DNA from: Candidatus Muiribacterium halophilum
Lineage (GTDB): Bacteria > Muiribacteriota > Muiribacteriia > Muiribacteriales > Muiribacteriaceae
DNA length: 64,000 bases
Direction: 5' to 3'
Assembly: GCA_002869225.1 (NCBI GenBank)
Contig: PKTG01000107.1
Span: 9,623-73,622 of the forward strand
The stretch's first letter is position 1. Each line of letters starts with the position of its first letter. The translations under genes and the position numbers were made by a program. The notes beneath the pieces are model-generated. The model was not told where the DNA came from and made no database searches. It was given only the letters and a program-made list of their open reading frames with translations. Shown here piece by piece: positions 2,788-64,000 of the stretch.

Positions 2788-3805
2788 TATTCTAAGAGAA
2801 AATTTCTCTTCAGCTGTAAAGGTTAATATAGAAAGCCTTCAACAGATCATAGATAATGTCTTGAATTCTGACATGACAAATGGGCAGATTAGGCGTGTTT
2901 GTTCGAAAATATCCGTTGTAAAGGCTTTCTCTGCTTTTATCGGCGTGTCAGAGTATGCAGATGTGTTTCGTGGTATACAGAAGGTATGCGAAGACATTTA
3001 TAATAGAGATATGAATCATAAAAAAAGAGTGCTTTCAATCGTCAGAAAGTATATAAACTCAATAAAAGATCTTGAGGTTGACGGTAAGATATACGCTCAT
3101 CTTCCTGAACTGGAATATTTCATAGCTTTTCCTGATTCATTTATCTTTTTTGATATAGATCCTCTGGATATGATAATTAATGAGGATAATATCAAGATAC
3201 CAAGAGTAGATTGTATTCAGAATTTTATCTTTTTAAATAATCTTGAAAATAGTATTAAAAAAGAGGAGTTTTCGATCATAAAAGAATCAGCTAAACTTGT
3301 AAGAGATTCTTTTTATTTATCTTATTTTGATGATCTTAAAGATATAAAGAGTAAATTGGGAGAAAAATATACTGACATAATTTTTAATATACCGGATGTA
3401 AGTTTAAATCTCTTTAAGGATAATACTACTTTTATTGAAGATACAATAGAGTTCTTTATAAAAGGTTTCGGTTGTGAGGATAGGAAAATACATATAACTA
3501 TAGATAGAGAGGATGAGCTATCCTATTTCATAGAGTTTATCTGTGATAGTTCAAATGAAATGGTGTTGAAAAATTGTCAGGATAATGATCCGAAAATGCG
3601 CATCTTATATGATGATTGGAAAGAAATATATAAGATGATAAAGATAAGATCCGGAAATGAGAGCCTGAAAAAATTATTTCATCTTTTCTTATCTATTAAG
3701 ACTAGAATGAGAGACATCTCTTTTCAATTTGATAATAACAGTGCGAGACTAAAACTCATATTTCCTGACAACTTCTTTTTAAGTGAAGGTGTAATTGATG
3801 AATAA
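2780..3805 (+). CDS. hypothetical protein (341 aa) between the response regulator and the kinase, translationally coupled at both ends
   Basis: Long ORF whose start and stop overlap the neighbouring genes. I recognise no motif. Confidence 0.5.
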   Translation: MDNILRENFSSAVKVNIESLQQIIDNVLNSDMTNGQIRRVCSKISVVKAFSAFIGVSEYADVFRGIQKVCEDIYNRDMNHKKRVLSIVRKYINSIKDLEVDGKIYAHLPELEYFIAFPDSFIFFDIDPLDMIINEDNIKIPRVDCIQNFIFLNNLENSIKKEEFSIIKESAKLVRDSFYLSYFDDLKDIKSKLGEKYTDIIFNIPDVSLNLFKDNTTFIEDTIEFFIKGFGCEDRKIHITIDREDELSYFIEFICDSSNEMVLKNCQDNDPKMRILYDDWKEIYKMIKIRSGNESLKKLFHLFLSIKTRMRDISFQFDNNSARLKLIFPDNFFLSEGVIDE

Positions 3806-5567
3806 AAAAGAGATAATAACTATTATAAAAAGTTTAAAAAAAGATTTAAATCCGAAAAAGGATGTTCTTATTTCTGATCACTTTGAAGATAGTTCTTCTA
3901 AATATTCGATATTCTTACTTGTTGACGATGAAATAAAAAGACTCAGGTCGGAAAAAAAAGAAAATATTATATTTATTCGAAGCGAAGCTATATCTTTAGA
4001 TGACTCCAGAGCCTTGATCTATTTTATAGTGGAGAAATTTCTTAATAAAGGTATAGGTAGTATATTAGAACTTAAAGTAATAAATAATCTGGGAGTGGTA
4101 GTGGCACTTACTGGTAATCAGAGCAAGCTTATATATTCTGAGGAAGAGTTTTGTATTGGAGCATTTGATGATTGTAAGGAAAACTGTCTTTATAGAAAGG
4201 CAAGATATTCAAAAGAGGTCAAAGAAAAATTATCTCAACTGGGTGGTGATGTTTACTCTGTAAGTCTAAACTCCTTTAATATAAATGATAAAAGATTCTT
4301 TTTTGAGACAATAGAGAAGAAGATAGATCTAAAAATACTGGAAAAAGCAGTTTCAAATAAAACAGAGGAAGGGACTTTTTTTGCGCATTTTATCGATGTA
4401 CTTGAAGTGTTTTATATATCAAGATCTAAATCCGATTATATAGAGAAGATAGGAGAAAAACTATCATCTATTTTTAACAGTCCCTATTTTCTGCTTTCAG
4501 ATGGTGATTCTCTATATGAGTTCAGGGATAAACGACTGATTATTAAAAATGAAGCTAATTTACCTAAAAGATTTCAGAATGTGCAGTTTATAACTGATAT
4601 AAAAGATTAAAAATCTTTCTCGGATCTGGAAAGGTACGGACGATACATAATTTACTTTACCGCTTCCTCCTTAAATTCAGAACTAGCGCAAATATTGTTT
4701 GTTACGGATAGATTGGAAGAGGATATATTAAATCTAATAAACCTACTTTCGGGTCAGATATTCCTATGTCTTAATTATTTTGAGAAGGTTGAGAACGAAA
4801 GATTAGACAGTGTTAAACTCTTTCAAAGAGAGAAGATGGCTTCTTTAGGCCAGCTTTATCTTGGAATAACACATGAGATAAACAATCCCAATCCATTTAT
4901 ATCCGGTAACAGTTAACTTATAGAGATGAATATAGAAGATATTAGAGAGATGATAGCAAAAGGTGTTGATAAGAACATGCTATTAAAAAAGATGGATGAT
5001 ATAGATGAATCTCTTAAAGATATAATGAAAGGTTCTGAAAGAATAGATAGTATAGTGCAGAACCTTAAGCTTTTTTCGAGATTCGATTACTCCAATGTCA
5101 GGAAGAATGATATTAAGAGAATAATATCCGAAGCAATAAGAGTATCCCAGTATAGAGCTAAAGATAAAGATCTTTTTGAACTTATATCAAGATCTGGAGA
5201 ATTTAATGTTAAAGTAAATCATGATGAGATGCTACAGGTGTTTGTGAATATTTTTCTGAATTCAATACAATCTATTGAAAAGAAAAAAGAAATGCTTGAA
5301 GGAAGTTTCTTTCAAGGCAGAATACAGGTCGAGATAGAAATATTTGATAAAGAGATATGTATTAAAGTCGAGGATAACGGTGCTGGAATGGATAAGATAA
5401 TGGCTTCCAAGGTGTTTGACCCGTTTTTTACCACAAAGGGAAATGACGGTACCGGTCTTGGTATGAACATAGTCTATAATATTATTGCAAAATATTCAGG
5501 AAGGATAAAAGTTGAGACCGAGCTTGATAGTTTTTTCAGAACTATCATTAATTTGCCGATAGCTTGA
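3795..5567 (+). pseudogene. cytoplasmic sensor histidine kinase; three same-frame segments joined across two in-frame TAA (4608-4610, 4914-4916)
   Basis: ORFs 3795-4610, 4695-4916 and 4926-5567 are all in frame 0, and the 28 codons 4611-4694 are also open. H-box ITHEINNP lies just before the second TAA. HATPase motifs EDNGAGMD and GTGLGM follow it. Confidence 0.75.
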
Positions 5568-5646
5568 AAGATATAAAACGCTGATGTATAATAATTGTCT
5601 GTAAACAAAAGTAGTAATTAAGTTAATATAGTAAAGGGGAGTAGTT

Positions 5647-7242
5647 ATGAAAAAAATAGTTTTATTTTCACTTGTCATGGTTTTTCTTTTAGTCAATTCG
5701 CAAGCAGCTGTGATCGGCAATGATCTGAAAGATATGCTTCAGAAAATCGATGAGCCGATCAGCGTAATAGTCAAGATGAAGGATGTCTCTGCACTTGTCT
5801 CAAACAGTTATGACATCGCGACTCTTAAACAGAATGCACAGATCTCTCAGAAAGATATAATGGATTTTCTTACCTATGAAAAAAACATTTCAGATGTGAA
5901 AAATCTTTGGGCTATGAGTGCTATATCAATAAAAGCTGATAAAAATCTTATTGAGACTATTGCGAAAAGAGATGATGTGGAAAAGATATTCCTTAATAAG
6001 GAATTTAAACTTTTTGATAATAATACTTATCGTGATTCATTGTTCAGGACAACTGATGGAGACGGATTTGTATATGGTCTTAAAAGTATGAACGTTGATA
6101 AAGTATGGAAGGATTTTGGTATCGATGGTACTGGTGTGATATCTGGTGTTGTGGATTCTGGTTTGACAAAAGACCTTTCAGTATTTGATGGCAAGTTATT
6201 AGCTGGTAAAAACTTTGCTGGTGACGAAAATGATTTTGCAGATAAAAACGGTCATGGTACACATGTATCTGGAACTGTATTGGGTTCATGGGTAAGTGAT
6301 GATCTTTATGAACTTAAATGGGGAATGTTCTGGTCAAAAGCCGGAACTTTTGAAGGTAATATCGGAGTAGCTCCTGGAGCTAAGTTTTACTTTGCAAAAT
6401 GTATGCAGGATGATGGAAAGATATCTTTTGATGATATTCTTGAAAGTATGCAGTGGCTTGTAGATCCTGACGGAGACCCTCAGACACATGATGGAGCGAG
6501 AGTGATAAATGCTTCTCTTGGTTCAGATGAGAGTGTCCCGGAACTTAGAGAACCTCTTGTCAATCTTCAGAAAACAGGCGTATTTCTATGTTTTGCTGCT
6601 GGAAATTCAGGTAAGATCTGTGGATCACCTGCTGACTTTCCAGAAATATTTGCAGTTGGTGCTGTTGATTCAAACGATAACAAAGCATACTTCTCGAGTA
6701 TTGGTCCGGTTAATTGGGATGGAAAAGAATATATTAAACCTGATGTATGTGCACCAGGTGTGAAAGTAATATCATACTATGGAAGTAAATTATCCTACCT
6801 TGATGGTACATCAATGGCATCACCTAACACTACAGGTGTTATAACTTTGATGTTTCAGGCTGATCCTACTCTTACTACTGATGAGATAAAAGAAATATTA
6901 AAAGAGACCGCTCTTGATCTTGGTGATGAAGGTCCTGATAATAAATATGGTTACGGTAGAGTAGATGCTTACGCTGCAATATCCAAAATAACTGGAGAAA
7001 ATAAGATCAAATCTCTTGTCTATAGATATCAGAAGGTAAAGGATGATCTAGTGATAAGTAGTGATATACTTGATGAAAGTCTGGCCTCTGAAAAGGCTTA
7101 TTTAAACAAAGTAAACAGAAAAGATTCTATGGTGGATGAGATAGTTTCCATGGTAGATGATTCAAAAGATTGTGAAAGACAACTTAGAGAACTGGTAGAA
7201 GAAGGAATAGATCTTTCAGAAATATTTGAAAAAATAAATTAA
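5647..7242 (+). CDS. secreted subtilisin-family (S8) serine peptidase
   Basis: Signal peptide. Asp/His/Ser triad motifs VVDSGL, HGTHVSGT, GTSMASP. Confidence 0.9.
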   Translation: MKKIVLFSLVMVFLLVNSQAAVIGNDLKDMLQKIDEPISVIVKMKDVSALVSNSYDIATLKQNAQISQKDIMDFLTYEKNISDVKNLWAMSAISIKADKNLIETIAKRDDVEKIFLNKEFKLFDNNTYRDSLFRTTDGDGFVYGLKSMNVDKVWKDFGIDGTGVISGVVDSGLTKDLSVFDGKLLAGKNFAGDENDFADKNGHGTHVSGTVLGSWVSDDLYELKWGMFWSKAGTFEGNIGVAPGAKFYFAKCMQDDGKISFDDILESMQWLVDPDGDPQTHDGARVINASLGSDESVPELREPLVNLQKTGVFLCFAAGNSGKICGSPADFPEIFAVGAVDSNDNKAYFSSIGPVNWDGKEYIKPDVCAPGVKVISYYGSKLSYLDGTSMASPNTTGVITLMFQADPTLTTDEIKEILKETALDLGDEGPDNKYGYGRVDAYAAISKITGENKIKSLVYRYQKVKDDLVISSDILDESLASEKAYLNKVNRKDSMVDEIVSMVDDSKDCERQLRELVEEGIDLSEIFEKIN

Positions 7243-7373
7243 GCATATATAATATTAACATAATAATAAGATATTGGGAGTCCCGAATGATCGGGATTCC
7301 CTTTTTATTGGAGTATATTAATAATCCAATACTGGCATATATCAGATTAAATAGATCTGATGGAGGGGAAAAG

Positions 7374-7628
7374 ATGGCCGCAATGGTTAGGGTAAACAAG
7401 GTAAAGGTCAAGATCAGAGAAAATCCTAGGGATGTAGATTCTTATTTAAATCTGAAAAAGCTTTATATAAAGAATGGACAGGAAGAGTCAGCTATAAAGT
7501 GTCTTAACAAACTCTACAGGATGACCGGAGAAAAGGAATATCTTGAAGAGATCAGAGTGCTTTCATGTAAAAATTATTTCAAACTTCTTGATAAGTTCCA
7601 GTATCAGATGAAAGATGGTGTTTTATGA
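7374..7628 (+). CDS. small hypothetical protein (TPR-like helix pair)
   Basis: GGAGGGG RBS before ATG 7374. Stop overlaps the next start (ATGA). Confidence 0.45.
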   Translation: MAAMVRVNKVKVKIRENPRDVDSYLNLKKLYIKNGQEESAIKCLNKLYRMTGEKEYLEEIRVLSCKNYFKLLDKFQYQMKDGVL

Positions 7629-8614
7629 GAAAAATTTTTTTCATTATGGTCTTATTTTCAATCTTATTAACGATAGATGCTGAGACTTTTATACTAAAAA
7701 ACGGCACTTTGATAACCGGCGAGATTAAAGACTATTTTCCTGAAAAAGAGTTCTATACTGTAAATATAATGGGAAAAGATAAGATGGTGGATAAGATCAT
7801 CGATATAAAAAAAGAGAATGTTGAAGCTATTATGATAAGACAGGTATTGACCGGTCAAAACGGGAATGAGTTTAGAAATTTTAAATTTCAATTTTTTTTG
7901 AAGAAACCTTCGTCGGATTGGTTTTTTATTGAAAATCCTTCTGATACAAAACCTATATTAACAGTAGCTCAGAAAACTGATTTTGATGATTCCACGCCTA
8001 AAGCAAGAATATTTATATACGGTCCTTATCCTGAACTTACCCCTGATATGGTAGCTCATGATGATGATCTTAAAAAGTTTGCAAGAGATTTTTTTATAAA
8101 AAATTTTCGTATGTATATAGGTTATGAGGATGGTGTTGAATATATCAATAACCGCAAGTACTTCTGGAGAATAGCAAATAATTTTGTGTTTGACTCAAGT
8201 CAAAGAGAGATCAAGATGAAATACAAACAGATACTATGTCTTAATGCTCACTATGTATATGTAATAGATTATTGTAATGATGAGAAAAAGTTTTCTAGAG
8301 AGACTGGTCTTTTAGAACAGGTGATGCAATCCTTTAAATTTCAGTCGGATGAGAACATATATTTGCAGATCTCAAACATGTTCTATTATCAGAAAGAATA
8401 TAAGAAAGCAATGGAATTTTTAAAAAGAGCTGTAGATCTTGAACCTCATAGAGGAGATCTTTATCAGAAGATGGGTGACATATATGGAAGATTAGGTCTG
8501 ATGAAAGATGCTTTTAAATCGTTTAAAAAAGCTCTAAGAAATGGAGCTGATAAAACGCTTATACAGTTTGAACTTGATAATCTCGAAGAAGAATTTTATA
8601 ATGGAGTTAATTGA
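7625..8614 (+). CDS. secreted protein with C-terminal TPR repeats
   Basis: N-terminal signal-like helix. C-terminal TPR pattern (YKKAMEFLKRAVDLEP...GDIYGRLGLMKDAFKSFKKAL). Confidence 0.6.
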   Translation: MRKIFFIMVLFSILLTIDAETFILKNGTLITGEIKDYFPEKEFYTVNIMGKDKMVDKIIDIKKENVEAIMIRQVLTGQNGNEFRNFKFQFFLKKPSSDWFFIENPSDTKPILTVAQKTDFDDSTPKARIFIYGPYPELTPDMVAHDDDLKKFARDFFIKNFRMYIGYEDGVEYINNRKYFWRIANNFVFDSSQREIKMKYKQILCLNAHYVYVIDYCNDEKKFSRETGLLEQVMQSFKFQSDENIYLQISNMFYYQKEYKKAMEFLKRAVDLEPHRGDLYQKMGDIYGRLGLMKDAFKSFKKALRNGADKTLIQFELDNLEEEFYNGVN

Positions 8615-12176: not shown

Positions 12177-13018
12177 TGGAAATAAACAAAAGGTATCTTG
12201 AAAGATTACTTGAAACCGCAATAGATGAGGATATAGCATTTTCAGGAGATATTACTTCTGAAAATATCTTTGAACGATCTCATATTTCAAAAGGTAGATT
12301 TATCTCAAAAGAAGAAGGAATATTCTGTGGAGAAGAAATACTAAGATACATATTTAAAAATAAAGTAAAAGATGGCGAGATAGAAATAAAAAAGAAAGAT
12401 GGAGAATATCTTCAAAAAGGTGATATCATTGCCAAAGTCAAAGGTAATACAAAAGATATTCTTTTATTTGAAAGAACATGTTTAAATATTATTTGCCATA
12501 TGTCTGGTATAGCCAACAAGACGATGAGATTAGTTAAAGCTTTGAATAGAGCTGATATAAGAGTGGTTGATACAAGGAAGACCCTTCAAGGATTAAGAGC
12601 ATTACAAAAATATGCTGTTAAGATTGGAGGAGGATACAATCACAGAAGCGGATTGTATGATGCTGTTATGATAAAAGAAAATCATATTAAAGCTGCTGGA
12701 TCAATAAAAGAAGCTGTATAGAAGGTTAGAAGGAACGTATCTCATGTGATAAAGATAGAAGTTGAGACAACTGATCTTAAGGAAGTTCATGAAGCGGTAG
12801 AAGCCGGAGCTGATATAATTATGCTTGATAATATGGAACATGAACAGATGAGTCAGGCCTGTATTATAATCAACAGAAGAGCATTGATTGAGATTAGTGG
12901 TAATATAAGTGATGATAATATAAAGGAAAGAGTAAAAGAACTTCCAGTGGATATTATATCAAGTGGAGCTTTGACACATTCTGTTAAGGTATTTGATATA
13001 TCTTTTTTATTAGATTGA
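12176..13018 (+). pseudogene. nadC: nicotinate-nucleotide pyrophosphorylase (quinolinate phosphoribosyltransferase) with one in-frame TAG (12719-12721)
   Basis: ORFs 12176-12721 and 12746-13018 share a frame. The combined 280 aa is the canonical NadC length. KENHIKAAGSIKEAV-stop-KVRR..IKIEVETTDL..AGADIIMLDNM spans the stop. Confidence 0.85.
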
Positions 13019-16620: not shown

Positions 16621-17616
16621 ATGAAAAGATTTTTTGTAATATACATTATTTTTATATTCATATTCATGGCAATAGCGGATTCTACCGTCCATGATATGTA
16701 TCAGACTGCAGAAGAATATTATAAAGAGGGAATGATATAAAATTCCATTTCTCTACTTTAAAAAGTCATTCTTCAGGACCCTACCTTTATTAGTGCTTAT
16801 TATCTTTTAGGTAAGATTTACAAAGAGATAAATGAGTACGATAAGGCTATGTCATATTTTGAAAAGTGTATTGAGTTAAGACAGGATCTTAGAAATCGCG
16901 AAAAATCACTTGAAGAGAGTGGAATACCAAAGGTCAAGGTAGAGATGAGTGATGTTCTTAAAAAGATTGGAGAAGCTGAAGAGATACTCAGTCAGGGTAT
17001 AAGATTTGTAGAGGAAGGTGATTTTCTGTCTGCTGAGAACAGTTTTAAATATGCGATAGATCTAAACCCTAATGTTGCAGAATATTATTTTAGATTAGCG
17101 GATGTGTATCTTGATAGACAACTCGATGATATGGCTATAAGTACTTTAAAAAAAGGTCTGAGAATAGATACAAAAAATACTGACAGATATATACTACTTG
17201 CATCTTTATATTCAAAAAGCGGAGATGACAGGAAAGCTGTTCATCTTCTAAAGACAGCAGCTACTGATCATTTTAACGATAATCTTAAATTTAGAGATCT
17301 TATAAAGAGGTACTCTGCCAATATTATGGATAGAAGGGATTATACTGTAATAAGAAGAGATGGTAGAGAAGTTATAATAAATGCAGGGTTTAGAGATGGT
17401 ATAAAAAGAGGTATGGAATTCAGGACTCATCTGACTGTTTATAGGGGAGGCACTCCTGTGAAAGATCTAAATACAGGTGAGATACTTGGACAGACTGAAA
17501 GAAAGGTCATAGGAGAGTTGCTAATAACTAAGGTCGAAGAAAAACTCACTTATGGTCAGATAACTATTGAAAAAGAAGATAAGATTAGGATAGGGGATTT
17601 TATTTCAATTGAGTAA
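16621..17616 (+). pseudogene. TPR-repeat protein with N-terminal membrane anchor; two in-frame TAA (16738-16740, 16759-16761)
   Basis: ATG 16621 is in the same frame as ORF 16849-17616. MKRFFVIYIIFIFIFMAIA anchor. The first TPR unit reads YYKEGMI-stop-NSISLL-stop-KVILQDP..AYYLLGKIY and continues into the called ORF. Confidence 0.65.
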
Positions 17617-18055: not shown

Positions 18056-19590
18056 TACTTATATATATATTTACCTTTATGATCTTTTCCTTCTCAATAA
18101 ATAGTATATCAGTTCAGGTAAACGATATTACTTTTAAGGGAAATATTGACGGGGATATAGTATACCTTCCACTTACCGATGTATGTAAAGAATTCGATAT
18201 AAAGTTTGGTTTTTTTCCTGACACAAATATCATAGCTATCAACTTTCAGAATAAGATGATGAGTACCGTCGTGGATCAGAAAGAACTTATAGTAAATAAT
18301 GAGATAAGTGAACTTGAAAATCCACCAATTCTTATCAATTCCGAAGTCTATATGCCTATTGAGTTCTTCTCAAAATATCTGGAGTTGGATATATCATGGA
18401 AACCTGAAGAGATCTCAAAGAGTTCTGTTATAAGTGAACTTGTATTCAGGGAAAGTCCAGATGTTCTTGAAATATTTATTAAAGCCGATAAATCTTTTTC
18501 AAAGAACGAATATTTTGTGATACAGGATAAAAGAGATCTTATAATAAGTTTTCCTAATACTAAGATCGATTTAGAAGGTTTTGAATATCCTCATGATTAT
18601 ATTGAAGATGTAAATTATTTGAACGAAAAGCAGGAGACTGCTCAACTAACTATCAGATTTAAAAACAATCTTGACATTCAGTTGGGTCCTTCTGTAAAGC
18701 CAGCTGGGATGTATATTAGAGTAAATATATCTGATGTTCAGAAAACGCTTCCAGAAAATCGTGATGTATTGGATACTTCTGAGATCATTTCCTATAGAGA
18801 GCCAGGTTCTATTGAAGTATCTGCTTCAGAGATTCCCCTGATCTCAACGACTGAAGTTGCATCAGTGATCAGTTTAGACAGTCAGGAGACATATGAGGTA
18901 GAGGATTCATATATAGAAGAAGTTCCAGATATTGAACTTCAGCAATATACTTTTGTTGAGGAAACCTCTGAAAATATACTTGAGAATAAAGTCATCGTAA
19001 TCGATCCTGGCCATGGTGGTTCGGATTATGGTATTACCAAATTCGGTATATATGAAAAAGATATCGTACTTTCGATAGGAAGAAAACTTTTTGATAAGTT
19101 GTCTGAAGGGGATGCGTCAGTATTTCTGACAAGAAAGGGAAACGAGAATCTTACAGATGAAAAAAGGTCATATGTGGCAAATAGTAATAGGGCACAATTG
19201 TTTTTATCCTTGCATCTTGCTTTTAGCAGAGATGAAAAGATATCAGGATTTTCAATCTATTATTCTCCACAGTCTGAAAATGATCTAAAAGATAAACAGG
19301 ATTCGATGGAAGAACTAAAAAATATAAAAAGATATGATGATAGTATTAAATTTTAAAGACTCGTTAGCAGACACTTCGTGGACGATCTTGGTTTTATAGA
19401 TAGAAATATATTGCAGGCACCTATATCTGTTTTAAGAGATGTAAACTGTCCTTCTATATTACTTGAACTAAATCATTTATCAAATATGGAAATAGCACAG
19501 CTTTTAAAGGAAGATGATATACAGGATAAAATAGCCGATACTTTATATAAGGCTATTGAATCATATTTCATGAGAAAGAGAGCAAGATGA
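18037..19590 (+). pseudogene. N-acetylmuramoyl-L-alanine amidase (AmiC-like, AMIN plus Amidase_3) with one in-frame TAA (19354-19356)
   Basis: ORFs 18037-19356 and 19378-19590 share a frame. VIVIDPGHGGSDYG and ANSNRAQLFLSLHL lie before the stop. APISVLRDVNCPSILLELNHLSN lies after it. Confidence 0.8.
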
Positions 19591-22994: not shown

Positions 22995-24409
22995 TAGCTT
23001 CTAACAGATTACCTATAGTCATTAAAAAAGAAAATGAAAAAGATTTTTCAATGACTCCTGGAAAATGAGGACTTGTTACAGCAATGGCTCCTGTCTTAAG
23101 AGACAGAGGTGGCATCTGGCTCGGATGGCCTGGAATAACTGATGAGGATAATATTAGTGATAAAAAGTTAAAAGAACTTATGGAAAAAGGTATAAAGGAT
23201 AGTGGTTATGATCTGGAACCCATAATCTTTTCTCATGAAGAAGCTGAAAAATATTATGAAGGTTTTTCAAATGAGATAATTTGGCCATTATTTCATGATC
23301 TTCCATCTCTTTGTAATTTCAAAGAGGAATACTGGAATATATATAAGGATGTAAACGAAAGATTTGCCAGTAAATTGACTGAAAAAGCTAAACCCGAGGA
23401 TTTTATATGGGTACATGATTATCATCTGATAAATGTTGCGACAAGATTAAGAAAAAGATCGCTGACAAATAAGATAGGATTTTTTCTGCATATTCCTTTT
23501 CCTCCGCTTGATGTCTTTTTAAAATTACCTTGGAGAAGGGAGATACTTCAGAGCCTTTTAGATTATGACCTGATAGGATTTCAGACACAAAGAGATAAAA
23601 GAAACTTTCTTCAATGTGTTCGTAGAGTGCTTAGATTTAGAGTTCAGGCAAGAGGAACAAAAAACATGGTCTATATAAAAAATCATAACAGAAAGGTCAG
23701 TGTAGCAGCTTTCCCTATTAGTATAGATTATGATAGTTTTGCAGAAGGTGCAGAGTCTGAAAACGTAGCAAAAAGAGCATGGTTTCTGCATGAAAACCTT
23801 CCAAATAGAACTCTGATTCTCGGGATAGATAGATTGGATTATACTAAAGGGATACCTTTTAAATTAAAAGCTTTTAAAAGAGCACTTGAAAAATATCCTG
23901 AACTACATAAAAATATTTCACTGGTTCAGATACTGGTACCTTCAAGAGTGCATATACCTAAATATAGGGAATTAAAGGAGAATATCGAAAAGCTTGTTGG
24001 AGAGATAAACGGAAAATTCACTGAACTTGGTTGGGTACCTGTATATTATATATTTAGATCGATGACAAGAGAAGAACTTTTAGCTTATTACCGGACTTCA
24101 GAGATAGCTTTTGTAACTCCGCTAAAAGATGGAATGAATCTGGTGGTAAAGGAGTTTTGTGCAAGTAATATTGAGGAGACTGGAGTTGTCATACTTTCCG
24201 AGTTTGCTGGTGCTGCTGCACAACTCGGTGAAGATTCTATCCTAGTTAATCCGTATGATGTAGAAAGAACAGCCGATGCTATATACAATGCTTTTACCAG
24301 TGATTATACATATAGAAAAAGAAGGATGAGAAAATTAAGACGATCTATTAAAAAATATGATATCTTCTGGTGGGTAAATGAATTTTTGGAATATGGAAAA
24401 GAAGAATAG
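22973..24409 (+). pseudogene. otsA: alpha,alpha-trehalose-phosphate synthase (GT20) with one in-frame TGA (23066-23068)
   Basis: ATG 22973 (GGAGG RBS) is in the same frame as ORF 23084-24409. MSEGRLIIASNRLP..TPGK-stop-GLVTAMAPVLRDRGGIWLGWPG matches the N-terminal GT20 signature. The total of 478 aa is canonical. Confidence 0.85.
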
Positions 24410-27525: not shown

Positions 27526-28629
27526 ATGATAGCATATGGAGTTGATGAAGTACTGGAAAATCGAAAACATCTAATTAAGGGTGTTCCGATCATTTTAATA
27601 ACCCATTACTATATAAAGGATTCAAATAAGGAGTCTGTTGCTGAGTTGTTTTATCAGGATCCGGAGATTAATCTTTCAAAGATAGTTTGTCCTAAATTTG
27701 GCTTTTTTCTTGATTCTAATACGACTGAAGATTTTGAAGGAATACCAGTTGAGTTTTTTAATATAGAGGATTTTAAAAAATCTCTTAAAAATATCCGCAC
27801 AGTTGTATTTGATCTTCAGGATACAGGAGTTAAGAACTCTCCTATACTTATCATGCTATTTGATATAATGAAAATATTAAATGATGTTGATGTAAACTTT
27901 TTGGTCCTTGATAGACCCAATCCTTTAAACAGTATTTCCTATGCAGGTATTATAGGACCTCTTGACGAGAAAAGACTGCCTCTCAGACATGGTATGACTA
28001 TTGGTGAACTTGCGAGTTATTTTAAATCACAGTTCTTTATAAGTACAAGGTTAAACGTAATTAAGATGATAAATTACGATAGGGAAGAGACTATATACGA
28101 TATAGAAGCTGGCGATAATCCATATTTGCCCGGTATAAGAAACAGAGATAGTCTTTGCCTATATTCTTTTTTACATCTTTTCACTTCAATGAATATCTCT
28201 GTAGGGCTTTGAAGTGATGTTGAATTTCTTGTGTTTGGTGCTCCATGGATCGATCCTGATATAGTATTTGATCAGATCATAATGATGGGTTTTGATGGAT
28301 TTTCTATGGAGACCTGTTCATTTACTCCAAGAGTCGGAATCTATTCTTCCACTGAATGTCACGGTATAAGGTTTAGGATAAATGATCTTTCTATGTTTGA
28401 TCCTATAGAACTCTTCTTAAATATAACAGAGATCTTATACTCATCATTTGGTGAGATAGAATTTCTTATGGATGAAGATGGGATTTATTTAATTGATTCT
28501 TTTTTTTCTGATGAGAGGATCAGAATAACAATAGAGAGATATATTCCAGCAACAAATGCTTATTATAAAGCGATGTCTACAATGGAGAGTTTTATTCCGG
28601 CAAGGCAAGAGGTACTTTTATATTCATGA
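27526..28629 (+). pseudogene. DUF1343 / NamZ-like exo-N-acetylmuramidase with one in-frame TGA (28210-28212)
   Basis: ORFs 27526-28212 and 28231-28629 share a frame. FDLQDTGV and VLDRPNPLN lie before the stop. NISVGL-stop-SDVEFLVFGAPWI spans it. Confidence 0.8.
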
Positions 28630-43851: not shown

Positions 43852-45269
43852 AAGTACTTCTAGTAAATCAACCTGATACAGAGGTAATACTTGCTAATAA
43901 TCCGGAGATACTTGAAGAGGAAAGAGGATATAACCCTCCACTTGGAATACTATATGTAGCCGGTGCTTTAAAGCAGGCTGGAATAGATGTGGAAGTTCTT
44001 GATGCGCAGGTTGAAAGATTGGATTATGAGCAGCTTGAAAATAGAATAAGATAAAACAAACCAGATGCAGTTGGTATGACTCTAATGACATTTACTATAT
44101 TTGATGTCATAAAGACAGCAAAAGTCGTTAGAAAGATCGACAAGAATATAAAAATAGTCCTTGGTGGTCCACATGTATTTATTTATCCTGAAGAGACGCT
44201 TTTACAGGATTGGGTTGATATTATACAGATAGGCGAAGGAGAGAAAAATACTCCTGAGCTTTTTAAAAATATTAAAGATCTAGAAAAACTGAAAACAATT
44301 CATGGTGTAGGAATAAAAAATGAGGATGGTACATTTCAGATAAATCCTCCTGATGAAGCTATAAAGGATCTTGATGATCTTCCATTCCCGGCAAGAGAAC
44401 TTACACCTATTCAAAAATATTCATCTGTTATAGCTAAAAGAAATCCCATAACGACTATGTTTACAAGTAGAGGCTGTCCTTATAAATGTCTTTTCTGCAA
44501 TCGACCGCATCTTGGAAAGACATTCAGAGCCCGTAGTGCTGAGAATGTAATAGAAGAGTTTAAAGTGTGTTTTGATCTTGGAATAAGAGAGTTTTTAATA
44601 TACGATGATACGTTCACAATTAACCGAGAAAGGGTTGTTGATTTCTGTGAACTTATGAAAAAGACTGGACTTAACACAAAAGTTGGTTTTGATATTAGAG
44701 CAAGAGTCAATACAGTTGATAGAGAACTTCTTATAATGCTTAAAGAAGCTGGATGTGAAAGAATACATTACGGTGTAGAGTCTGGTACTGAAAAGATATT
44801 AAAAGTCCTTAGAAAAGGTATTACACTTAATCAGGCAAGAGAAGTCTTTAAGATAACCAAAGAGGTTGGGATATCAACACTTGCTTATTTTATGATAGGT
44901 TCTCCGACTGAGACAGAAGAAGATGTTGAGAAGACCATTGATTTTGCTCTTGAACTTGATCCTGATTTTGTACATGTTACAATAACTAGTCCATTTCCTG
45001 ATACTCCATTATATGCAATGGCGCTTGAAGAAAATGTAATAAAAAGGGATGTTTGGAGAGAGTTTGCTAAAAACCCAACAAAAGATTTTGTAGCACCGCA
45101 TTGGAATAGAGAACTTTCGGATGAGACTTTGCATAGACTGATTAAAAAAGCTTATAAAAAATTCTATATGAGACCTGGTTATATCATAAGAAGACTTCTT
45201 GACTTGAGATCATTTTCAGAGTTTATGAGAAAAGCCAAAGCAGGTATAAAGGTGTTCCTGTTAAAGTAA
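43848..45269 (+). pseudogene. B12-binding-domain radical SAM enzyme with one in-frame TAA (44052-44054)
   Basis: ATG 43848 and ORF 44076-45269 share a frame. ..ENRIR-stop-NKPDAVGMT..VLGGPH is the B12-binding fold. CPYKCLFC is the radical SAM cluster. Confidence 0.8.
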
Positions 45270-56636: not shown

Positions 56637-56639
56637 TAT

Positions 56640-57653: not shown

Positions 57654-58489
57654 TGCCTGTATTTAGAATAAAAAAAGGACAAGATAATAAAAAAAAGATC
57701 ACTATTGGTCAGCAGGGTATTCTTCGTGAAGATGAATTTAAAGAAGAAAAAAATGAACTTGATGATCTTATAAGAAAAAAGAATTCTATTATATCTGAGA
57801 TAAACTCTCTTAAGCATGAATCGGAAGGTATTATAAGCGATGCAAGAGACCAGGCTGATAGAATAAATGAACAATCTAAAGTTCAGAAAACAGAGGCTGA
57901 GAATATTCTAAGTGAGGCAAAGGAACAGGCTGAAAAAATACTAGTTAAGGCCAAAGAGGAAGCTGAAAAAGAAAAAGAAAAAGGTTATTCCGAGGGATTC
58001 GATCAGGGTTATACAAAAGGTGCCAAAGAAGGAAACGAATCCGCTATAAAAAGTATAAGAGAGGAATACCAAAGTATATTAAAAGAATCTGAAAATGTAT
58101 TGAATCAGGTTATTTCGAAAAAACAGGAGATAATCAAAAAAGCTGATGAAGAGATACTAAGAATAGTTTTAAAAGTCGCCAGGAAAGTAATAAGCGGAGA
58201 ACTCAGAATAAATAAGGAAATAGTATACAACAATCTGAAAGAAGCTCTGAAAAGACTTACAGATAGAGAAAATGTCATCATTCATATCAACAAGAAGGAC
58301 CTTCCAATTGTAGAATCTCATCGAGATGAATTTTTCTCAGAGATCAGAGGTCTTAAAAACTTCAAGATAGTTGAAGAAAACTTTCTTAATCCCGGTGATT
58401 GTATTGTAGAGACACAGTTTGGATTTATTGATGCTGTGATAGATTCTCAATTTGAAGAACTGGAAAGAATATTGCTTGAAGAGGAGTAG
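57653..58489 (+). CDS. fliH: flagellar assembly protein FliH
   Basis: Glu/Lys-rich coiled coil plus a C-terminal FliH domain. Sits between fliG and fliI. Confidence 0.75.
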   Translation: MPVFRIKKGQDNKKKITIGQQGILREDEFKEEKNELDDLIRKKNSIISEINSLKHESEGIISDARDQADRINEQSKVQKTEAENILSEAKEQAEKILVKAKEEAEKEKEKGYSEGFDQGYTKGAKEGNESAIKSIREEYQSILKESENVLNQVISKKQEIIKKADEEILRIVLKVARKVISGELRINKEIVYNNLKEALKRLTDRENVIIHINKKDLPIVESHRDEFFSEIRGLKNFKIVEENFLNPGDCIVETQFGFIDAVIDSQFEELERILLEEE

Positions 58490-58492
58490 ATT

Positions 58493-59800
58493 TTGGATTT
58501 TGAACATCTCGAGGAGAAGATAGATTCAATCGATACATTGAAGGTAAATGGGAAAGTGACCCATGTAATAGGTCTTTTGATTGAATCTATGGGACCTTCA
58601 GCAAGAATAGGAGAGCTCTGTTATATATACCCGAGAGGTTCAAAGGAACCTATTTACTCTGAGATTGTTGGATTTAAAGAAAATAAAGTGCTTCTTATGC
58701 CTTTCTCCGAGGTGCATAACATTGCTCCCGGATGTGAAGTAAGAGCAAGCGGTCATACAATGAAGGTGCCAGTTGGCAAAGCTCTTCTTGGAAGAGTTAT
58801 CGATGGACTTGGAAGACCCCTTGACGGAAAAGGACCTATAAGACCGGAAAAATATTGTGAGGTATATAATGAACCTCCAAATCCTCTTTCAAGACCAAGA
58901 ATAGATAAAAAACTCGAGCTTGGAGTCAAAGCTTTAGATGGAATGCTCTCCGTTGGTAGAGGACAAAGAATTGGAATATTTGCAGGTTCAGGAGTTGGTA
59001 AATCAACACTTATGGGAATGATAGCCAGAAATACTGAAGCTGATATAAACGTTTTTGCATTAGTTGGAGAGCGTGGTAGAGAGGTAAGAGAATTTATAGA
59101 AAGAGATCTTGGTGAAGAAGGTCTGAAAAGGTCTGTAGTGATATGTGCAACAAGTGACCAACCAGCTCTTATAAGACTAAAAGGAGCCTTTGTAGCTACA
59201 GCAGTAGCAGAATATTTTAGGGATCTAGGTAAAGATGTGATTCTTATGATGGATTCTGTTACTAGATTTGCGATGGCTCAGAGAGAGGTTGGACTTACAG
59301 TTGGGGAACCACCTGCAACGAGAGGATATACACCGTCTGTTTTTGCGATTCTTCCTAAATTACTTGAAAGAAGTGGAAGATCTGAAAAAGGAAGTATAAC
59401 AGGAATATATACAGTGCTTGTAGAAGGTTCAGATATGGATGAACCTGTTGCAGATGCTGTGAGAGGTATTTTAGACGGTCATATTGTGTTAAGACGTGAA
59501 CTTGTCATGCAGAACCATTATCCTGCTATAGATATTCTTGAATCTGTATCGAGACTTATGCCTGAGATAATTGAAAAAGAACATCTTTCCACTGCAAATA
59601 GGTTAAGGAGTACTTATTCTACTTACAAAGATACTGAAGATCTAATAAACATCGGTGCTTATGTAAGTGGTTCAAATCCACAGGTGGATTATTCTATTAG
59701 GAAAATAGATGAGATAAAGGATTTTCTTACTCAGGGAGTATATGAAAAATTCTCTTTTGAAGATACAGTTGATATGCTTAAGGATATTTTTAAAGGATGA
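58493..59800 (+). CDS. fliI: flagellum-specific ATP synthase FliI
   Basis: Walker A GSGVGKST. Walker B ILMMDSVTRFA. F1-ATPase-like fold length. Confidence 0.95.
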   Translation: MDFEHLEEKIDSIDTLKVNGKVTHVIGLLIESMGPSARIGELCYIYPRGSKEPIYSEIVGFKENKVLLMPFSEVHNIAPGCEVRASGHTMKVPVGKALLGRVIDGLGRPLDGKGPIRPEKYCEVYNEPPNPLSRPRIDKKLELGVKALDGMLSVGRGQRIGIFAGSGVGKSTLMGMIARNTEADINVFALVGERGREVREFIERDLGEEGLKRSVVICATSDQPALIRLKGAFVATAVAEYFRDLGKDVILMMDSVTRFAMAQREVGLTVGEPPATRGYTPSVFAILPKLLERSGRSEKGSITGIYTVLVEGSDMDEPVADAVRGILDGHIVLRRELVMQNHYPAIDILESVSRLMPEIIEKEHLSTANRLRSTYSTYKDTEDLINIGAYVSGSNPQVDYSIRKIDEIKDFLTQGVYEKFSFEDTVDMLKDIFKG

Positions 59801-59808
59801 AGGTTTAG

Positions 59809-60258
59809 ATGGCAAAATTCAAATATAAGTTTGAAAGACTTTTAAATATAAAAGAGATCGAAGAAAAAAAAGAATATTCAGAACTTGTTAGGATAAGAGA
59901 GGCTATAAAGATCAAGATAGGTGAAAAAGAAGAGGTAAATAAAAAAGTTATAGAGCTTGAAAATAACATTGAGAAGTTAGAAGTATTCTCGGTTGACCAG
60001 ATGAAATATTACAATTCAAGATTTGTAGAGCTTGATAATGAAATAGAGAAAATACAAAAAAATATTGAAAAGCTGCAGGACAATGAGAAGGTACAGAACG
60101 AAAAAGTTATAGAGATAAGTAAGAAAAAAAAGATCCTGGAAAAGTTAAAGGAAAAACATAGATTAGCTTTTAATAAGGAAGAGGAACGTAAATTGAATAA
60201 AGTGCTTGATGAACTCGGTACAAGAGGTTTTATTAGGAAGGGAAGGGGGAGTCTATGA
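59809..60258 (+). CDS. fliJ: flagellar export chaperone FliJ
   Basis: 149-aa coiled coil beginning FKYKFERLLNIKE. Position after fliI. Confidence 0.7.
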   Translation: MAKFKYKFERLLNIKEIEEKKEYSELVRIREAIKIKIGEKEEVNKKVIELENNIEKLEVFSVDQMKYYNSRFVELDNEIEKIQKNIEKLQDNEKVQNEKVIEISKKKKILEKLKEKHRLAFNKEEERKLNKVLDELGTRGFIRKGRGSL

Positions 60259-60551
60259 TAGAGAATATAATGAAAGTTAAAAATAGAATAAAGGATATTA
60301 AAAGTGATATAAACAATATTCATAAGATAAAGACCGAAGATTTTAAAAAAGAGCTGGAAAAGACTAAAGAGACAAAAAAGACTAAAGAAGTTGAAAAAGA
60401 GAGTGTAGAGACTAAGCTCAAAAAGATGGTTGACGATAATCAACTTGATAGTATTCTTGATAATAGCTCAATTAAAGATATGAAGAGAGGGGAGATCATT
60501 AATAAAAACAAACTGGATTTTTATAAGATGATCTCTGAAAAACTTTTTTAA
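60255..60551 (+). CDS. hypothetical Lys-rich protein in the flagellar operon
   Basis: Stop/start overlap with fliJ. No motif recognised. Confidence 0.4.
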   Translation: MIENIMKVKNRIKDIKSDINNIHKIKTEDFKKELEKTKETKKTKEVEKESVETKLKKMVDDNQLDSILDNSSIKDMKRGEIINKNKLDFYKMISEKLF

Positions 60552-60561
60552 GGGGTAGATC

Positions 60562-61275
60562 ATGCCTGAAGAAGAATTAGAACAACAACAAAAACCAAAA
60601 AGAAAGGCTGGATTTTTTCAAAACCTTTTAGCTTTATTATTATTTGTATTTTTTATTATATCTTTGTCTGCATTGGTAGTACTAATGGATTTCATCGGTG
60701 TAATAAATTTTAGAAGAAAACTTCCACCAAAAATAAGAGAAAATATGTATGTACAGGAATATATAAAAAAAGCCAACCTTTTAGATATGAGTGAAGAGGA
60801 AAGGCTCAAAGTTATGATAGAAAGTCAGAATAAGACCTATGAGGAGCAACAGGATCAACTGAAAAAACTCGAACATAATATTGAAGAAAAATTAAAAGCT
60901 ATGTCTGATTATGAAAAGCAATACGCTTCAAAAAAGAAGGAACTTGATGAAGCGGATAACAAGCTTGAAGATATGAAAAAAGAGATGCAGGAACTTGAAA
61001 AACAAAAGAAGCAGTATCAGGATGATATAAGAAGTGCACAGCTTGACGATCTTACAAAACAGGAAAAGTTAAAACAACTTGCGGTAATTTATGAAAAGAT
61101 GGAGCCTGAAGCAGCAGGATTGACCTTTAATGATATGGATGATGATCTTGCTATAGATATTCTGATGACTATGAAAGAGTCAAAAGCTGCTGAGATAATG
61201 AACAATATGAATGCGGAAAAAGTAGTCAAGATCGCAGAAAAATTAAAATCTAAAGGAATATGGCGGAATAAATGA
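60562..61275 (+). CDS. MgtE_N/MotE-like flagellar operon protein (YlxF-like)
   Basis: N-terminal TM, coiled coil, and a C-terminal ..MEPEAAGLTFNDMDDDLAIDILMTMKESKAAEIMNNM pattern. Confidence 0.6.
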   Translation: MPEEELEQQQKPKRKAGFFQNLLALLLFVFFIISLSALVVLMDFIGVINFRRKLPPKIRENMYVQEYIKKANLLDMSEEERLKVMIESQNKTYEEQQDQLKKLEHNIEEKLKAMSDYEKQYASKKKELDEADNKLEDMKKEMQELEKQKKQYQDDIRSAQLDDLTKQEKLKQLAVIYEKMEPEAAGLTFNDMDDDLAIDILMTMKESKAAEIMNNMNAEKVVKIAEKLKSKGIWRNK

Positions 61276-62060
61276 TGAATGATGTTATATTATTTGTATC
61301 AGGAATTATTCAGGGACTTACAGAGTTTTTACCGGTATCAAGTTCAGGTCATCTGGTTGTGTTTCAGACACTTTTTTCTTTTAAAGCACCGAAGGTAGCT
61401 ATTGAACTCATACTTCATTCAGCGACACTGCTTAGTGTGTTTTATCTTTTTAAGAAAAGGATATGGAGTATTATAAGATCGATGTTGGCTTTCAAAAAGG
61501 ATGATGATTTTAGAATGGGTATGAATATAATAATCGGAAACATACCAACTGCTATAATTGGATTTACTTTTAAAGATTTCTTTGCAAGCCTTTTTAATTC
61601 AGGAAGTTTCCCGGTAGCAATAGCACTTTTGTTTACAGGTTCTATGCTTCTTTTCACAGAAAAGATAAAAAAAGGGGAAAAGGATATCAATATAGTAACA
61701 TCAATTATAATAGGAATTGCTCAAGGACTTGCTATTATTCCTGGGATATCTAGATCAGGATCTACTATATTTATTGCATTAGCAAGAGGTGTTAAACCTG
61801 AGAAAGCGTTTGAATATTCCTTCCTTTTATCGATACCCGCAATAATGGGAGCTACAATACTTGAACTTAAGGATATCGATCTTTCTATGATCCACCCCGT
61901 TAAAATAATACCAGCCTTCCTGGCAGCTTTCTTTTCAGGAATATTTGCTTTAAAACTTTTGAAAAACTCTATCAGACAAGGAAAATTATATTTATTTGGT
62001 GTTTATTGTATAGTTATAGCGGTTGCTCTGATAATTTATACGAGGTTTCTAAATGCTTGA
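61272..62060 (+). CDS. uppP: undecaprenyl-diphosphate phosphatase
   Basis: GLTEFLPVSSSGHL and PGISRSGSTI motifs. 8-TM profile. Confidence 0.9.
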   Translation: MMNDVILFVSGIIQGLTEFLPVSSSGHLVVFQTLFSFKAPKVAIELILHSATLLSVFYLFKKRIWSIIRSMLAFKKDDDFRMGMNIIIGNIPTAIIGFTFKDFFASLFNSGSFPVAIALLFTGSMLLFTEKIKKGEKDINIVTSIIIGIAQGLAIIPGISRSGSTIFIALARGVKPEKAFEYSFLLSIPAIMGATILELKDIDLSMIHPVKIIPAFLAAFFSGIFALKLLKNSIRQGKLYLFGVYCIVIAVALIIYTRFLNA

Positions 62061-64000
62061 TAAAAGACATAAAAAACAGGTGGCTGGGGTCTTATTCTGT
62101 GGGGTTTCTATATTACTTATATTTGCTTTTTTTTCAAGTGATTCTGGTCTGTTTGGTAATCTTGTAGAACATCTGAAAAGATTTACTGGTACTGGAGTAT
62201 TACTTGCTGCCTATTTTTTCTGGATAACAGGAGTTTCTTTTTTTTATAAAGAAAAGGATGAGAATAAAGATTTTATGCTGGATCTACTTGCGTGGCTTCT
62301 ATTCACGTGTTGTTTTCTTATAATAACCGGTAAAATTGACAAAGGCGGGAATATAGGTTCTTTTGTATATCAATCTTTTGTATATGTTTTTGGAAATACA
62401 GGAACGATCATCTTAGCATATCTTTTGACTTTAGTTTCTCTGTTGATAACATTTAGGATCGATCTGGTAAAAGTCTTTTTAAAGATAAACACATATATCA
62501 AAAGTGAAAGATTAAAAGATGTATTAAAAAGATTTTTAGTAAAACAAAAAAATAAGGAAAACAGTTTAAAAGAAGAGAATATATCCACAGATAGTTTAGC
62601 TCAAACACATGTGTTTGATGTAAGAAAGACAATTGAAAAAGAAGAAGATGTCAATAATAAAAAATCGGAAACAAAATCAATTGAAGAGAATAAGGTTGAA
62701 GAAAAACCAAAACAGGAAAAATCAGAGAAAAATGAAAATAAATCCGATAAAAAAAGAAAAGAAAATATTAAAAAATCAAAAGATCAGGAAGATAACAGTT
62801 CAGATATTTCTGAAGAGATAAAAGAGAAAAAAGGATTAGAAAAGGAATCTGAGACAGAAGAGTTTGTGCTTCCACCGGTAGAACTATTGGATGATATAGA
62901 AGTTAAACAGACTGTTTCTGAGGATGAACTTCAAATAAAGGGAGAAAAACTCCTTAGTACATTGTCATCTTTTAAGATACAGGCAGAGATAATAGCAACC
63001 ACCATAGGACCATCAGTTACACGATTTGAACTCAGGTTGGCTGCGGGAATCAAAGTCTCTAAATTACTTGGTTTATCAAATGATATAGGTGTTACCCTTG
63101 CTACAAAAAATATTAGGATCGAAGCTCCTATACCAGGAAAATCAGCTATTGGTATTGAGATACCAAATGAAAATCCTATGTTAGTCCCATTCAGACAGGT
63201 AATAGATAAAGTCAAAAAATCCGATCATTCACTTAGAATGGGTCTAGGTAAGAATATAAACGGTAAAGAGGTAATATAGAATCTTGGAAAGATGCCGCAT
63301 CTTCTTATTGCAGGATCAACCGGTTCAGGTAAGAGTGTATGTGTAAATACCATCATAGCTTCAATGCTTTTTAATGCTTATCCCGATGATCTTAAGTTTA
63401 TTATGGTAGATCCTAAGATGGTTGAGTTAAGTGTATACAATGGTATACCACATCTTCTTATACCAGTTGTGACAGATCCAAAGAAAGCTGCCGCAGCTCT
63501 TGGTTGGGCAGTTGAAGAGATGGAAAGAAGATACTCTATGCTTGCTGATTATAAAGTGAAAAAACTGGAGGAGTTTAACGAAAAGATGCAGGGGCTAGCC
63601 GAAGAATATCCTTCGGATAAGGATAAATATGAAAAACTTCCTTATATTGTAATAATAATTGATGAACTTGCTGATCTTATGGTTGTTGCAAGAAATGAAG
63701 TCGAGGAATCTATCATGAGAATAGCTCAGAAGGCAAGAGCTGTTGGAATACATCTTATTATCGCAACTCAGAGACCTTCTGTAAATGTTATAACCGGTGT
63801 TATAAAAGCTAATCTGCCATCGAGAATTTCCTTCGCCGTACAATCTCAGACCGATTCAAGGACGATATTGGATCAGAAAGGTGCTGAGAGTCTTATTGGA
63901 AAAGGGGATATGCTTTTCTGGCCAATAGGTCAAAACGCACCGATGAGGATGCATGGTGCATTCGTCTCAAACGAAGAGGTTGAAAGACTTGTAAGTTACT
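62053..64000 (+). pseudogene. ftsK: DNA translocase FtsK (3' end outside the window) with one in-frame TAG (63277-63279)
   Basis: N-terminal TM helices, Lys/Glu-rich linker, alpha domain. ..[34 protein letters not shown] continues in the same frame through Walker A and the [11 protein letters not shown]alker B. Confidence 0.85.

Follow-up and report, generated by a model that had tools for sequence, protein, structure and literature searches.

Ten in-frame stop codons in a Candidatus Muiribacterium halophilum contig are private, unselected G:C>T:A changes, most likely consensus errors of one deposited genome rather than recoding

Introduction

Do in-frame stop codons within conserved genes mean that a bacterium reads its stops as sense codons, or do they have another origin? 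The question is raised by a 64,000-nucleotide stretch of the deposited metagenome-assembled genome (MAG) of Candidatus Muiribacterium halophilum (contig PKTG01000107.1, positions 9,623 to 73,622 of the forward strand; hereafter the window), in which eight conserved genes, all on the plus strand, are each interrupted by one or two stop codons. The original description of the organism is said to be that of Barnum et al. 2018. An initial annotation of the window had named read-through or suppressor tRNAs, a strand-biased G-to-T mutational or damage signature and consensus errors among the candidate explanations. Comparison with sister assemblies shows that the stops are private, unselected G:C>T:A changes of the oxidised-guanine type, most likely consensus errors of a single deposited MAG, and not recoding.

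Results

The ten stops that the initial annotation had listed are all present and in frame with the fragments on either side. Its claim that each protein family continues across the stop is borne out by Pfam domains that run uninterrupted through the stop positions in six genes, namely QRPTase_C (residues 112-276) across X182 of nadC, Amidase_3 (320-508) across X440 of the amidase, Glyco_transf_20 (5-473) across X32 of otsA, NamZ_C (212-366) across X229 of NamZ, B12-binding (27-138) across X69 of the B12-radical SAM protein and FtsK_SpoIIIE (386-577) across X409 of ftsK. With gene models borrowed from intact sister assemblies, the window holds exactly ten internal stops in 8 of its 60 genes (~13%), compared with zero in the sister sequence. 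As had been noted, TAA, TGA and TAG each serve as ordinary terminators as well, closing 25, 24 and 10 of the 59 complete genes, respectively; a simple genome-wide reassignment such as code 4 or 25 therefore does not fit. Searches of the window found no tRNA genes and no Rfam families. As the initial annotation observed, eight of the ten stops are followed by A, yet A is already the next base after 42% of these codons in the background, and the enrichment is marginal (P = 0.017, post hoc).

The references were four assemblies made independently from the same population, one from JGI/IMG, two from ENA and one from Logan. All four are colinear with the window and ~99.9% identical to it (divergence ~0.1%), with zero indels over 64 kb, which confirms that frameshifts are absent, and none of the eight genes is interrupted in any of them. 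Between 34.4 and 44.2 kb a single reference (JGI) was available, and the polarity of changes is assumed there. A relative with a 71% identical otsA (P0002, L011-L014) comes from other metagenomes and hence provides no control for the pipeline. Only one NCBI record, that of the Candidatus Muiribacterium halophilum MAG (PLX16692.1-PLX16753.1; locus tags C0601_09450-09760; contig of 84,284 bp), has the split fragments as proteins in their own right, while full-length forms of the split proteins are found in JGI/IMG, Logan, ENA and a second NCBI record.

When the ancestral codons were checked against the sister assemblies, every one of the ten sites proved to be a sense codon (GAA four times, GAG once, GGA twice, TCA twice and TCG once), and seven of the ten stop-making changes are first-position G>T. 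In the sensor kinase (589 aa when intact), TAA codons at 4608..4610 and 4914..4916 on the plus strand, the strand of all ten stops, each replace GAA (Glu) through G>T at 4608 and 4914, where the four references have G. A TAG at 12719..12721 in nadC (280 aa intact) replaces GAG (Glu) through G>T at 12719, with G in two references, and the TPR protein (331 aa intact) carries two TAA codons, at 16738..16740 and 16759..16761, in place of GAA through G>T at 16738 and 16759, with G in three references. Both TGA codons replace a conserved Gly codon GGA, as had been proposed: that of otsA (478 aa intact) at 23066..23068 through G>T at 23066, Gly also being the residue in P0001, and that of NamZ (367 aa intact) at 28210..28212 through G>T at 28210. 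The truncated otsA reading frame at 23084-24409 (441 aa) is identical to PLX16715.1.

The other three changes are second-position C>A. In the MurNAc-LAA amidase (517 aa intact), the TAA at 19354..19356 derives from TCA (Ser) through C>A at the second codon position, 19355, and the resulting fragments PLX16709.1 and PLX16710.1 occur in the GenBank MAG only. The TAA at 44052..44054 in the B12-binding radical SAM protein (473 aa intact) likewise derives from TCA (Ser) through C>A at 44053, a base covered by the JGI reference only; the intact 473-aa product is also present in Logan, ENA and NCBI. The TAG at 63277..63279 in ftsK (755 aa intact) derives from TCG (Ser) through C>A at 63278, again at codon position 2. 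The earlier proposal of first-position changes to T, best explained as G-to-T from GAA, GAG or GGA, thus holds at seven of the ten sites and fails at these three; similarly, the expectation that TAA and TAG stand at Glu, Gln or Lys sites is right for five Glu codons and wrong for the Ser codons hit at 19355, 44053 and 63278. Deamination of the C>T type (CAA, CAG or CGA to stop, as produced by base editors or in ancient DNA) was considered and rejected, since the ancestral bases are G or C and the changes are transversions to T or A.

The stops are part of a larger class of changes. We counted 49 substitutions private to the window, 34 of which are G:C>T:A (18 G>T and 16 C>A) and 15 of other types; where at least two references agree, the G:C>T:A share is 29/37. 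All ten stops fall within the 34-member class, which has a density of ~5e-4 per bp (~0.5 per kb) and includes 24 further members that make no stop. Those read as G>T change PFOR (K>N at 2173), the protein TPR329 (A>S at 7913), otsA (Q>H at 23236), inositol monophosphatase (W>C at 46822), ftsK (Q>H at 63954) and a minus-strand gene for a 98-aa protein (F>L at 42533), are synonymous at 12149 and, in a minus-strand gene, at 26027, and are intergenic at 20260, 27492 and 32589. Those read as C>A change a hypothetical 341-aa protein (L>I at 3434), the kinase (L>I at 3822), nadC (P>Q at 12588), otsB (H>N at 22755), minus-strand genes (G>V at 26442 and K>N at 26714), XdhC (Q>K at 35774), a CoA-binding protein (H>N at 40108), PAD_porph (P>T at 40929) and the B12-radical SAM protein (P>H at 44302), and are synonymous at 5435 in the kinase, at 18927 in the amidase and at 19877 in a Germane-domain protein. 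The changes at 35774, 40108, 40929 and 42533 are scored against JGI as the single reference. Because of the private changes at 40108 and 42533, the CoA-binding and 98-aa proteins of the window have no exact match.

The class has a marked sequence context: 33 of the 34 changes lie at 5'-YC (that is, at a G followed by a purine) compared with a background of 59% (P = 4e-7), the change at 7913 being the sole exception. Per-site rates at TCN and CCN are equal (2.5 versus 2.7 per kb). Both strands are affected alike, with G>T at 1.44e-3 per G and C>A at 1.74e-3 per C (P = 0.6), so the strand bias suspected in the initial annotation does not hold; all stops lie in plus-strand genes because 50 of the 60 genes are on that strand. 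A 16.5-kb stretch, 46822-63278, is free of any G:C>T:A event (P = 0.0013). Strand-coordinated clustering of G>T versus C>A, which would be a mark of single-molecule origin, is not significant in the window: the changes form 19 runs where 17.9 are expected, and a test on neighbours of the same type less than 350 bp apart gave P = 0.2.

The G:C>T:A class is unselected, whereas the other private changes have been purified. Stops within the class number 10 against 7.9 expected from trinucleotide context (P = 0.24), and 5 of its 31 coding changes are synonymous against 2.7 expected, which is not significant. Among the 15 other private changes, by contrast, 9 of the 13 coding ones are synonymous against 3.7 expected (P = 0.0026), and the two groups differ (Fisher P = 0.001).

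None of the 34 private G:C>T:A alleles was found in the JGI, the two ENA or the Logan assemblies. The ten stops are thus private to one deposit, and the class they belong to is context-specific, strand-symmetric and unselected. Private changes of the other assemblies number 1-15 each; none makes a stop, and most are transitions, synonymous or intergenic. Four private G:C>T:A changes, different from those of the window, occur in the JGI assembly, 4/4 in the G-purine context and 4/4 non-synonymous, as against 0/4 in that context for the four private G:C>T:A changes of the ENA assemblies. Since the JGI changes bear the same signature, the signature is tied to data sets or assemblies and not to one lineage. 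The window also alternates at sub-kb scale between two haplotypes known from single-run assemblies, as expected of a pooled or chimeric (mosaic) consensus.

Discussion

Because near-identical sister assemblies have sense codons at these sites, the stops are best read as unselected substitutions and not as recoding. The evidence agrees with two of the earlier candidates, consensus errors and a mutational or damage signature of G-to-T type, and we suggest that the two combine as follows. The changes strike guanines that precede a purine (5'-GA or 5'-GG) on either strand, regardless of codon position or protein function, and because the genome is AT-rich and abounds in GAA, GGA and TCA codons, roughly one change in four creates a stop. 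The chemistry would probably be guanine oxidation, in which 8-oxoguanine pairs with A on copying; in GG and GA it is the 5' G that oxidises most readily. Entry into the consensus was in all likelihood technical, through damaged template together with low effective unique coverage, amplification or a reassembly or consensus step, and the changes would not be carried by a living lineage. Coverage of an 84-kb contig is normally high enough for random read errors to be outvoted, so a further factor has to be assumed, for which low library complexity or amplification, read subsampling and a faulty consensus or polishing step are candidates.

Oxidation during library preparation is known to yield C>A/G>T changes via 8-oxoguanine, most readily where another C comes before the C (PMC3616734). 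The window resembles such artefacts of sheared Illumina libraries (Costello et al. 2013, PMC3616734) in that G>T/C>A makes up nearly the whole excess, in its dependence on neighbouring bases (a pyrimidine before C, a purine after G), in being blind to coding consequences and in being missing from independent data sets. It differs from them in that the changes stand in the deposited consensus and not at low allele fraction in reads. The context is also not identical: the published one is CCG>CAG (PMC3616734), while in the window TCA>TAA forms the largest class, TC (GA) sites match CC (GG) sites per site, and CCG does not dominate.

The alternative that survives best is that the changes are real, the MAG having sampled a hypermutator lineage that gathered G:C>T:A changes almost without selection. 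Possible causes would be loss of 8-oxoguanine repair of the MutY/MutM type, the mutY and mutM genes lying outside the window, or heavy oxidative or reactive-chlorine stress in the reported source enrichment culture. Indeed, the spectrum and the G-purine context suit 8-oxoguanine mutagenesis whether in vivo or in vitro, strand symmetry is the expectation for fixed mutations, neutral accumulation is also expected of an extreme hypermutator, and ~5e-4 per bp is of the order of the density in long-term laboratory mutator lines. Mutators deficient in MutY/MutM (the GO system), with their MUTYH-type C>A signature, are likewise dominated by G:C>T:A on both strands and near-neutral. We nevertheless consider this reading unlikely. 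It would have to accommodate nonsense codons in 13% of genes, including ftsK, nadC, otsA and a cell-wall amidase, with neither stops nor non-synonymous changes depleted, although other differences of the same lineage are clearly purified. Nor does any independent assembly hold one of the 34 alleles; unlike in such mutators, the alleles do not recur and there is no sign of a living carrier lineage. The different private changes of JGI, with the same signature, would demand a second mutator lineage, and the event-free 16.5-kb stretch is unexpected under uniform mutagenesis. That the deposit is a faithful record of a real, extreme G:C>T:A hypermutator clone, whether through stress in a perchlorate-reducing enrichment or lost 8-oxoguanine repair, is very unlikely; such a clone would have borne hundreds of nonsense mutations yet stayed abundant enough to assemble.

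Pseudogenisation of the usual kind, or the decay of a genome whose lineage is declining or restricted to a host, would account for the many interrupted genes (8/60), but it is highly improbable for a 64-kb stretch that has no indels, frameshifts, deletions or IS elements, in which one substitution class lies behind all stops and which is only ~0.1% divergent from relatives with every gene intact. The initial annotation had likewise seen little resemblance to ordinary gene decay.

Decoding of the stops by context-dependent read-through, suppressor tRNAs or partial reassignment can be virtually dismissed, for although in-frame TGA, TAG and TAA in conserved genes recall known reassignment or read-through (codes 4 and 25, selenocysteine, pyrrolysine), both TGA codons stand at Gly in superficial likeness to code 25 (TGA=Gly; in code 4, TGA=Trp) and A follows 8 of 10 stops, every test run contradicts it: the stops are not conserved among ~99.9% identical genomes, which have GGA, GAA, GAG, TCA or TCG at these sites; three stop codons would stand for three different amino acids (Glu, Gly and Ser) while all three terminate the complete genes of the window; no dedicated tRNA or RNA element lies within it; and the stops, accompanied by 24 unselected G:C>T:A changes that make none, are as frequent as a blind G:C>T:A process predicts.

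To conclude, the value of this locus lies in a data-quality warning. The species name Muiribacterium halophilum stands as the type of a candidate phylum (PMC10408702), and one public MAG under this name has ~0.5 G:C>T:A changes per kb and ~13% of the window genes probably split falsely. At least 11 fragment entries are already in GenBank and UniRef, among them PLX16692.1, PLX16694.1, PLX16709.1, PLX16710.1, PLX16715.1, PLX16718.1, PLX16719.1, PLX16735.1, PLX16752.1 and PLX16753.1, and screens for recoding, pseudogenes or gene loss will be misled by such records. A cheap and general diagnostic is to polarise changes against sister assemblies, to seek G:C>T:A at G-purine sites and to compare selection on this class with that on the rest. 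No read-through, suppressor tRNA or code change has to be invoked, and the standard code applies; the genes themselves are very probably unbroken in the organism, and the locus then holds no new biology.

Results

Comparison with sister assemblies

The initial annotation described ten in-frame stop codons inside eight + strand genes, and we found these coordinates to be right, each stop lying in the same frame as its flanking fragments. Using the gene models of the sister assemblies, the window holds exactly ten internal stops, in 8 of 60 genes, and its reconstructed ancestral sequence holds none under the same 60 models; the original list is therefore complete. Family continuity across the stops was likewise borne out. 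With X placed at the stops, a single Pfam domain spans the interruption in each of six + strand genes, namely QRPTase_C in nadC, Amidase_3 in the amidase gene, Glyco_transf_20 in otsA, NamZ_C in NamZ, B12-binding in the radical SAM protein gene and FtsK_SpoIIIE in ftsK. The window has a G+C content of 33.9%, and no tRNA genes or Rfam families were found in it.

As references we chose sister contigs encoding identical proteins from four other assemblies of the same population: JGI 3300007102 (Ga0102541_1031384, 83.9 kb), ENA ERZ794998 (NODE_34), ENA ERZ794999 (NODE_15 and NODE_44) and Logan SRR5894289. These cover the whole window, with one assembly over 9.8 kb and two to four over the other 54.2 kb. 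All eight split genes are called intact in every sister assembly and, in line with the earlier claim that frameshifts were lacking, there are 0 indels between the window and these assemblies. At shared polymorphic sites (2276-7828 and 46930-62609) the window alternates between the ENA ERZ794998/JGI and ENA ERZ794999/Logan haplotypes in less than 1 kb. Such switching is typical of a pooled consensus; it suggests that the consensus is chimeric between strains or that the window is recombinant. At three places the assemblies differ from one another at two neighbouring bases (43296-43297, 15056-15057 and 47927-47928; CT versus TC, CC versus TA and CC versus TT), which may reflect dinucleotide substitution or slips in the local consensus.

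An otsA query carrying X at the TGA retrieved an intact OtsA of 478 aa (P0001), present in JGI, Logan and ENA, which has Gly at the TGA site and otherwise differs from the window only by Gln in place of His. In exact look-ups, a single NCBI record, and no other source, listed the split fragments as separate proteins: the MAG 'Candidatus Muiribacterium (Muirbacterium) halophilum' (C0601_09450 to C0601_09760, PLX16692.1 to PLX16753.1, on a contig of 84,284 bp), in which PLX16715.1 is identical to the truncated otsA ORF at 23084-24409. Full-length forms (589, 517, 478, 367, 473 and 755 aa) are found in JGI/IMG, Logan and ENA and in one further NCBI record. The species, with type assembly GCA_002869225.1, gives its name as the type to a genus, a family, an order and a class (PMC10408702). 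At NCBI the name Candidatus Muirbacterium halophilum covers both this MAG and the relative that encodes P0002. The OtsA proteins of the two share only 71% identity, and the two organisms probably belong to different genera.

Spectrum, context and selection

The ancestral codons show that the proposal of single first-position changes holds for seven of the ten stops, all G>T: Glu GAA at 4608, 4914, 16738 and 16759, Glu GAG at 12719 and Gly GGA at 23066 and 28210, so that both TGA codons do replace Gly as had been suggested. The other three, not foreseen in the initial annotation, arose by C>A at the second position of Ser codons, TCA at 19355 and 44053 and TCG at 63278. All ten belong to a wider set of changes. 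At 49 positions, 37 of them with at least two agreeing references, the window disagrees with every available reference; of these 49 private changes, 18 are G>T and 16 are C>A, 34 in all. In 33 of the 34 events a pyrimidine precedes the C, that is, a purine follows the G (background 59%, P = 4e-7). GA sites are hit about 2.5 times per kb and GG sites about 2.7 times, against 0 of 5,535 GT sites and 1 of 3,364 GC sites, and TCA>TAA is the biggest single class (13 events). The strand bias suspected at first is absent: G and C are hit at 1.44e-3 and 1.74e-3 per base, respectively (P = 0.6), and the mutated G belongs to the coding strand 15 times and to the template strand 16 times. All stops lie in + strand genes because 50 of the 60 genes are on that strand. 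An A directly follows the stop in 8 of 10 cases, as noted before (background 42% A, P = 0.017, post hoc), a pattern that we treat as compositional. Events are unevenly spread, with none across 16.5 kb between 46822 and 63278 (P = 0.0013).

Uniform blind G>T/C>A substitution would turn 12.7% of events into stops, i.e. 4.3 of 34; given the trinucleotide contexts, 7.9 are expected and 10 were observed (P = 0.24). Among the 31 coding changes of the G:C>T:A class, 5 are synonymous against 2.7 expected (P = 0.19), whereas among the 13 other coding private changes, mostly transitions, 9 are synonymous against 3.7 expected (P = 0.0026). The synonymous share differs between the two classes (Fisher's test, P = 0.001), and the private differences in the window are therefore of two sorts: a small set that resembles common strain polymorphism already filtered by selection, and the G:C>T:A set, to which selection was never applied.

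Each sister assembly has 1 to 15 private changes of its own; most of them are transitions, silent or located between genes, and no stop arises from any. The JGI contig carries four private G:C>T:A changes (window positions 28932, 31245, 31569 and 48778), 4/4 in G-purine context and 4/4 non-synonymous; the same artefact may be present in that assembly, at about a seventh of the rate. The four private G:C>T:A changes of the ENA assemblies all lie outside this context. The signature tracks individual assemblies or read sets rather than a single lineage.

Other genes in the window

A four-gene trehalose cluster (20312-24409, DUF5752-TreT-OtsB-OtsA), in which the OtsB and OtsA genes overlap by 22 bases, is kept in the relative with the 71% identical OtsA (contig L011, 7188-11482). 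The gene order of a xanthine-dehydrogenase-like cluster at 32643-41741 is found there in part. This cluster encodes a molybdopterin subunit, a 2Fe-2S subunit, XdhC and an FAD subunit, together with an FAD-dependent protein, an amidohydrolase, a CoA-binding protein and a PAD_porph-family protein, and has the appearance of a catabolic island of the purine or agmatine type. At 47064-48005 (+), flanked by genes for an inositol monophosphatase and a large S8 peptidase, lies the gene for a stand-alone SIR2_2 protein of 313 aa. In PADLOC this protein hits the SIR2 portion of Thoeris ThsA (E = 4e-21, profile positions 5-275 of 478). A SLOG domain is lacking, and neither neighbouring gene product is TIR/ThsB-like.

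Discussion

When copied, 8-oxoG pairs with A, and in GG and GA steps the 5' guanine is the one most readily oxidised. Guanine oxidation thus predicts G:C>T:A changes at guanines 5' to a purine, and the private G:C>T:A substitutions are most probably consensus errors of this oxidised-guanine type. A technical origin is indicated by the G-purine changes private to the JGI assembly, the uneven spread of events, the haplotype switching and the implied loss of 13% of genes. Candidate routes into the consensus of an 84-kb contig are low library complexity or amplification, read subsampling, and a reassembly or polishing step. C>A/G>T artefacts from oxidation during library preparation are documented and arise preferentially where another C comes before the affected one (Costello et al. 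2013, PMC3616734).

A real hypermutator clone, deficient in GO repair or oxidatively stressed, would be expected to show the same spectrum and neutrality. It is, however, disfavoured: a knockout load of 13% of genes at about 0.1% divergence is hard to square with a viable clone, private changes of this kind recur in a second assembly but at other sites, the events are distributed unevenly, and 0 of the 34 alleles were found in other assemblies. Recoding, read-through or suppressor tRNAs, which the initial annotation had put forward as candidates, fail every test. The sister assemblies have sense codons at all ten sites, so the stops are not conserved among genomes about 99.9% identical; three different amino acids are replaced by three stop codons; normal genes are terminated by all three (TAA 25, TGA 24, TAG 10), as had already been recognised; and the stop count agrees with a blind substitution process. 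Ordinary gene decay is contradicted by the complete absence of indels and the single substitution class.

To conclude, the ten stops are no biological feature of this bacterium: they belong to a group of G:C>T:A substitutions, unfiltered by selection, that only one public MAG carries, most probably as errors in its consensus. The result is a warning about this MAG record, and a recipe for spotting the same problem elsewhere.
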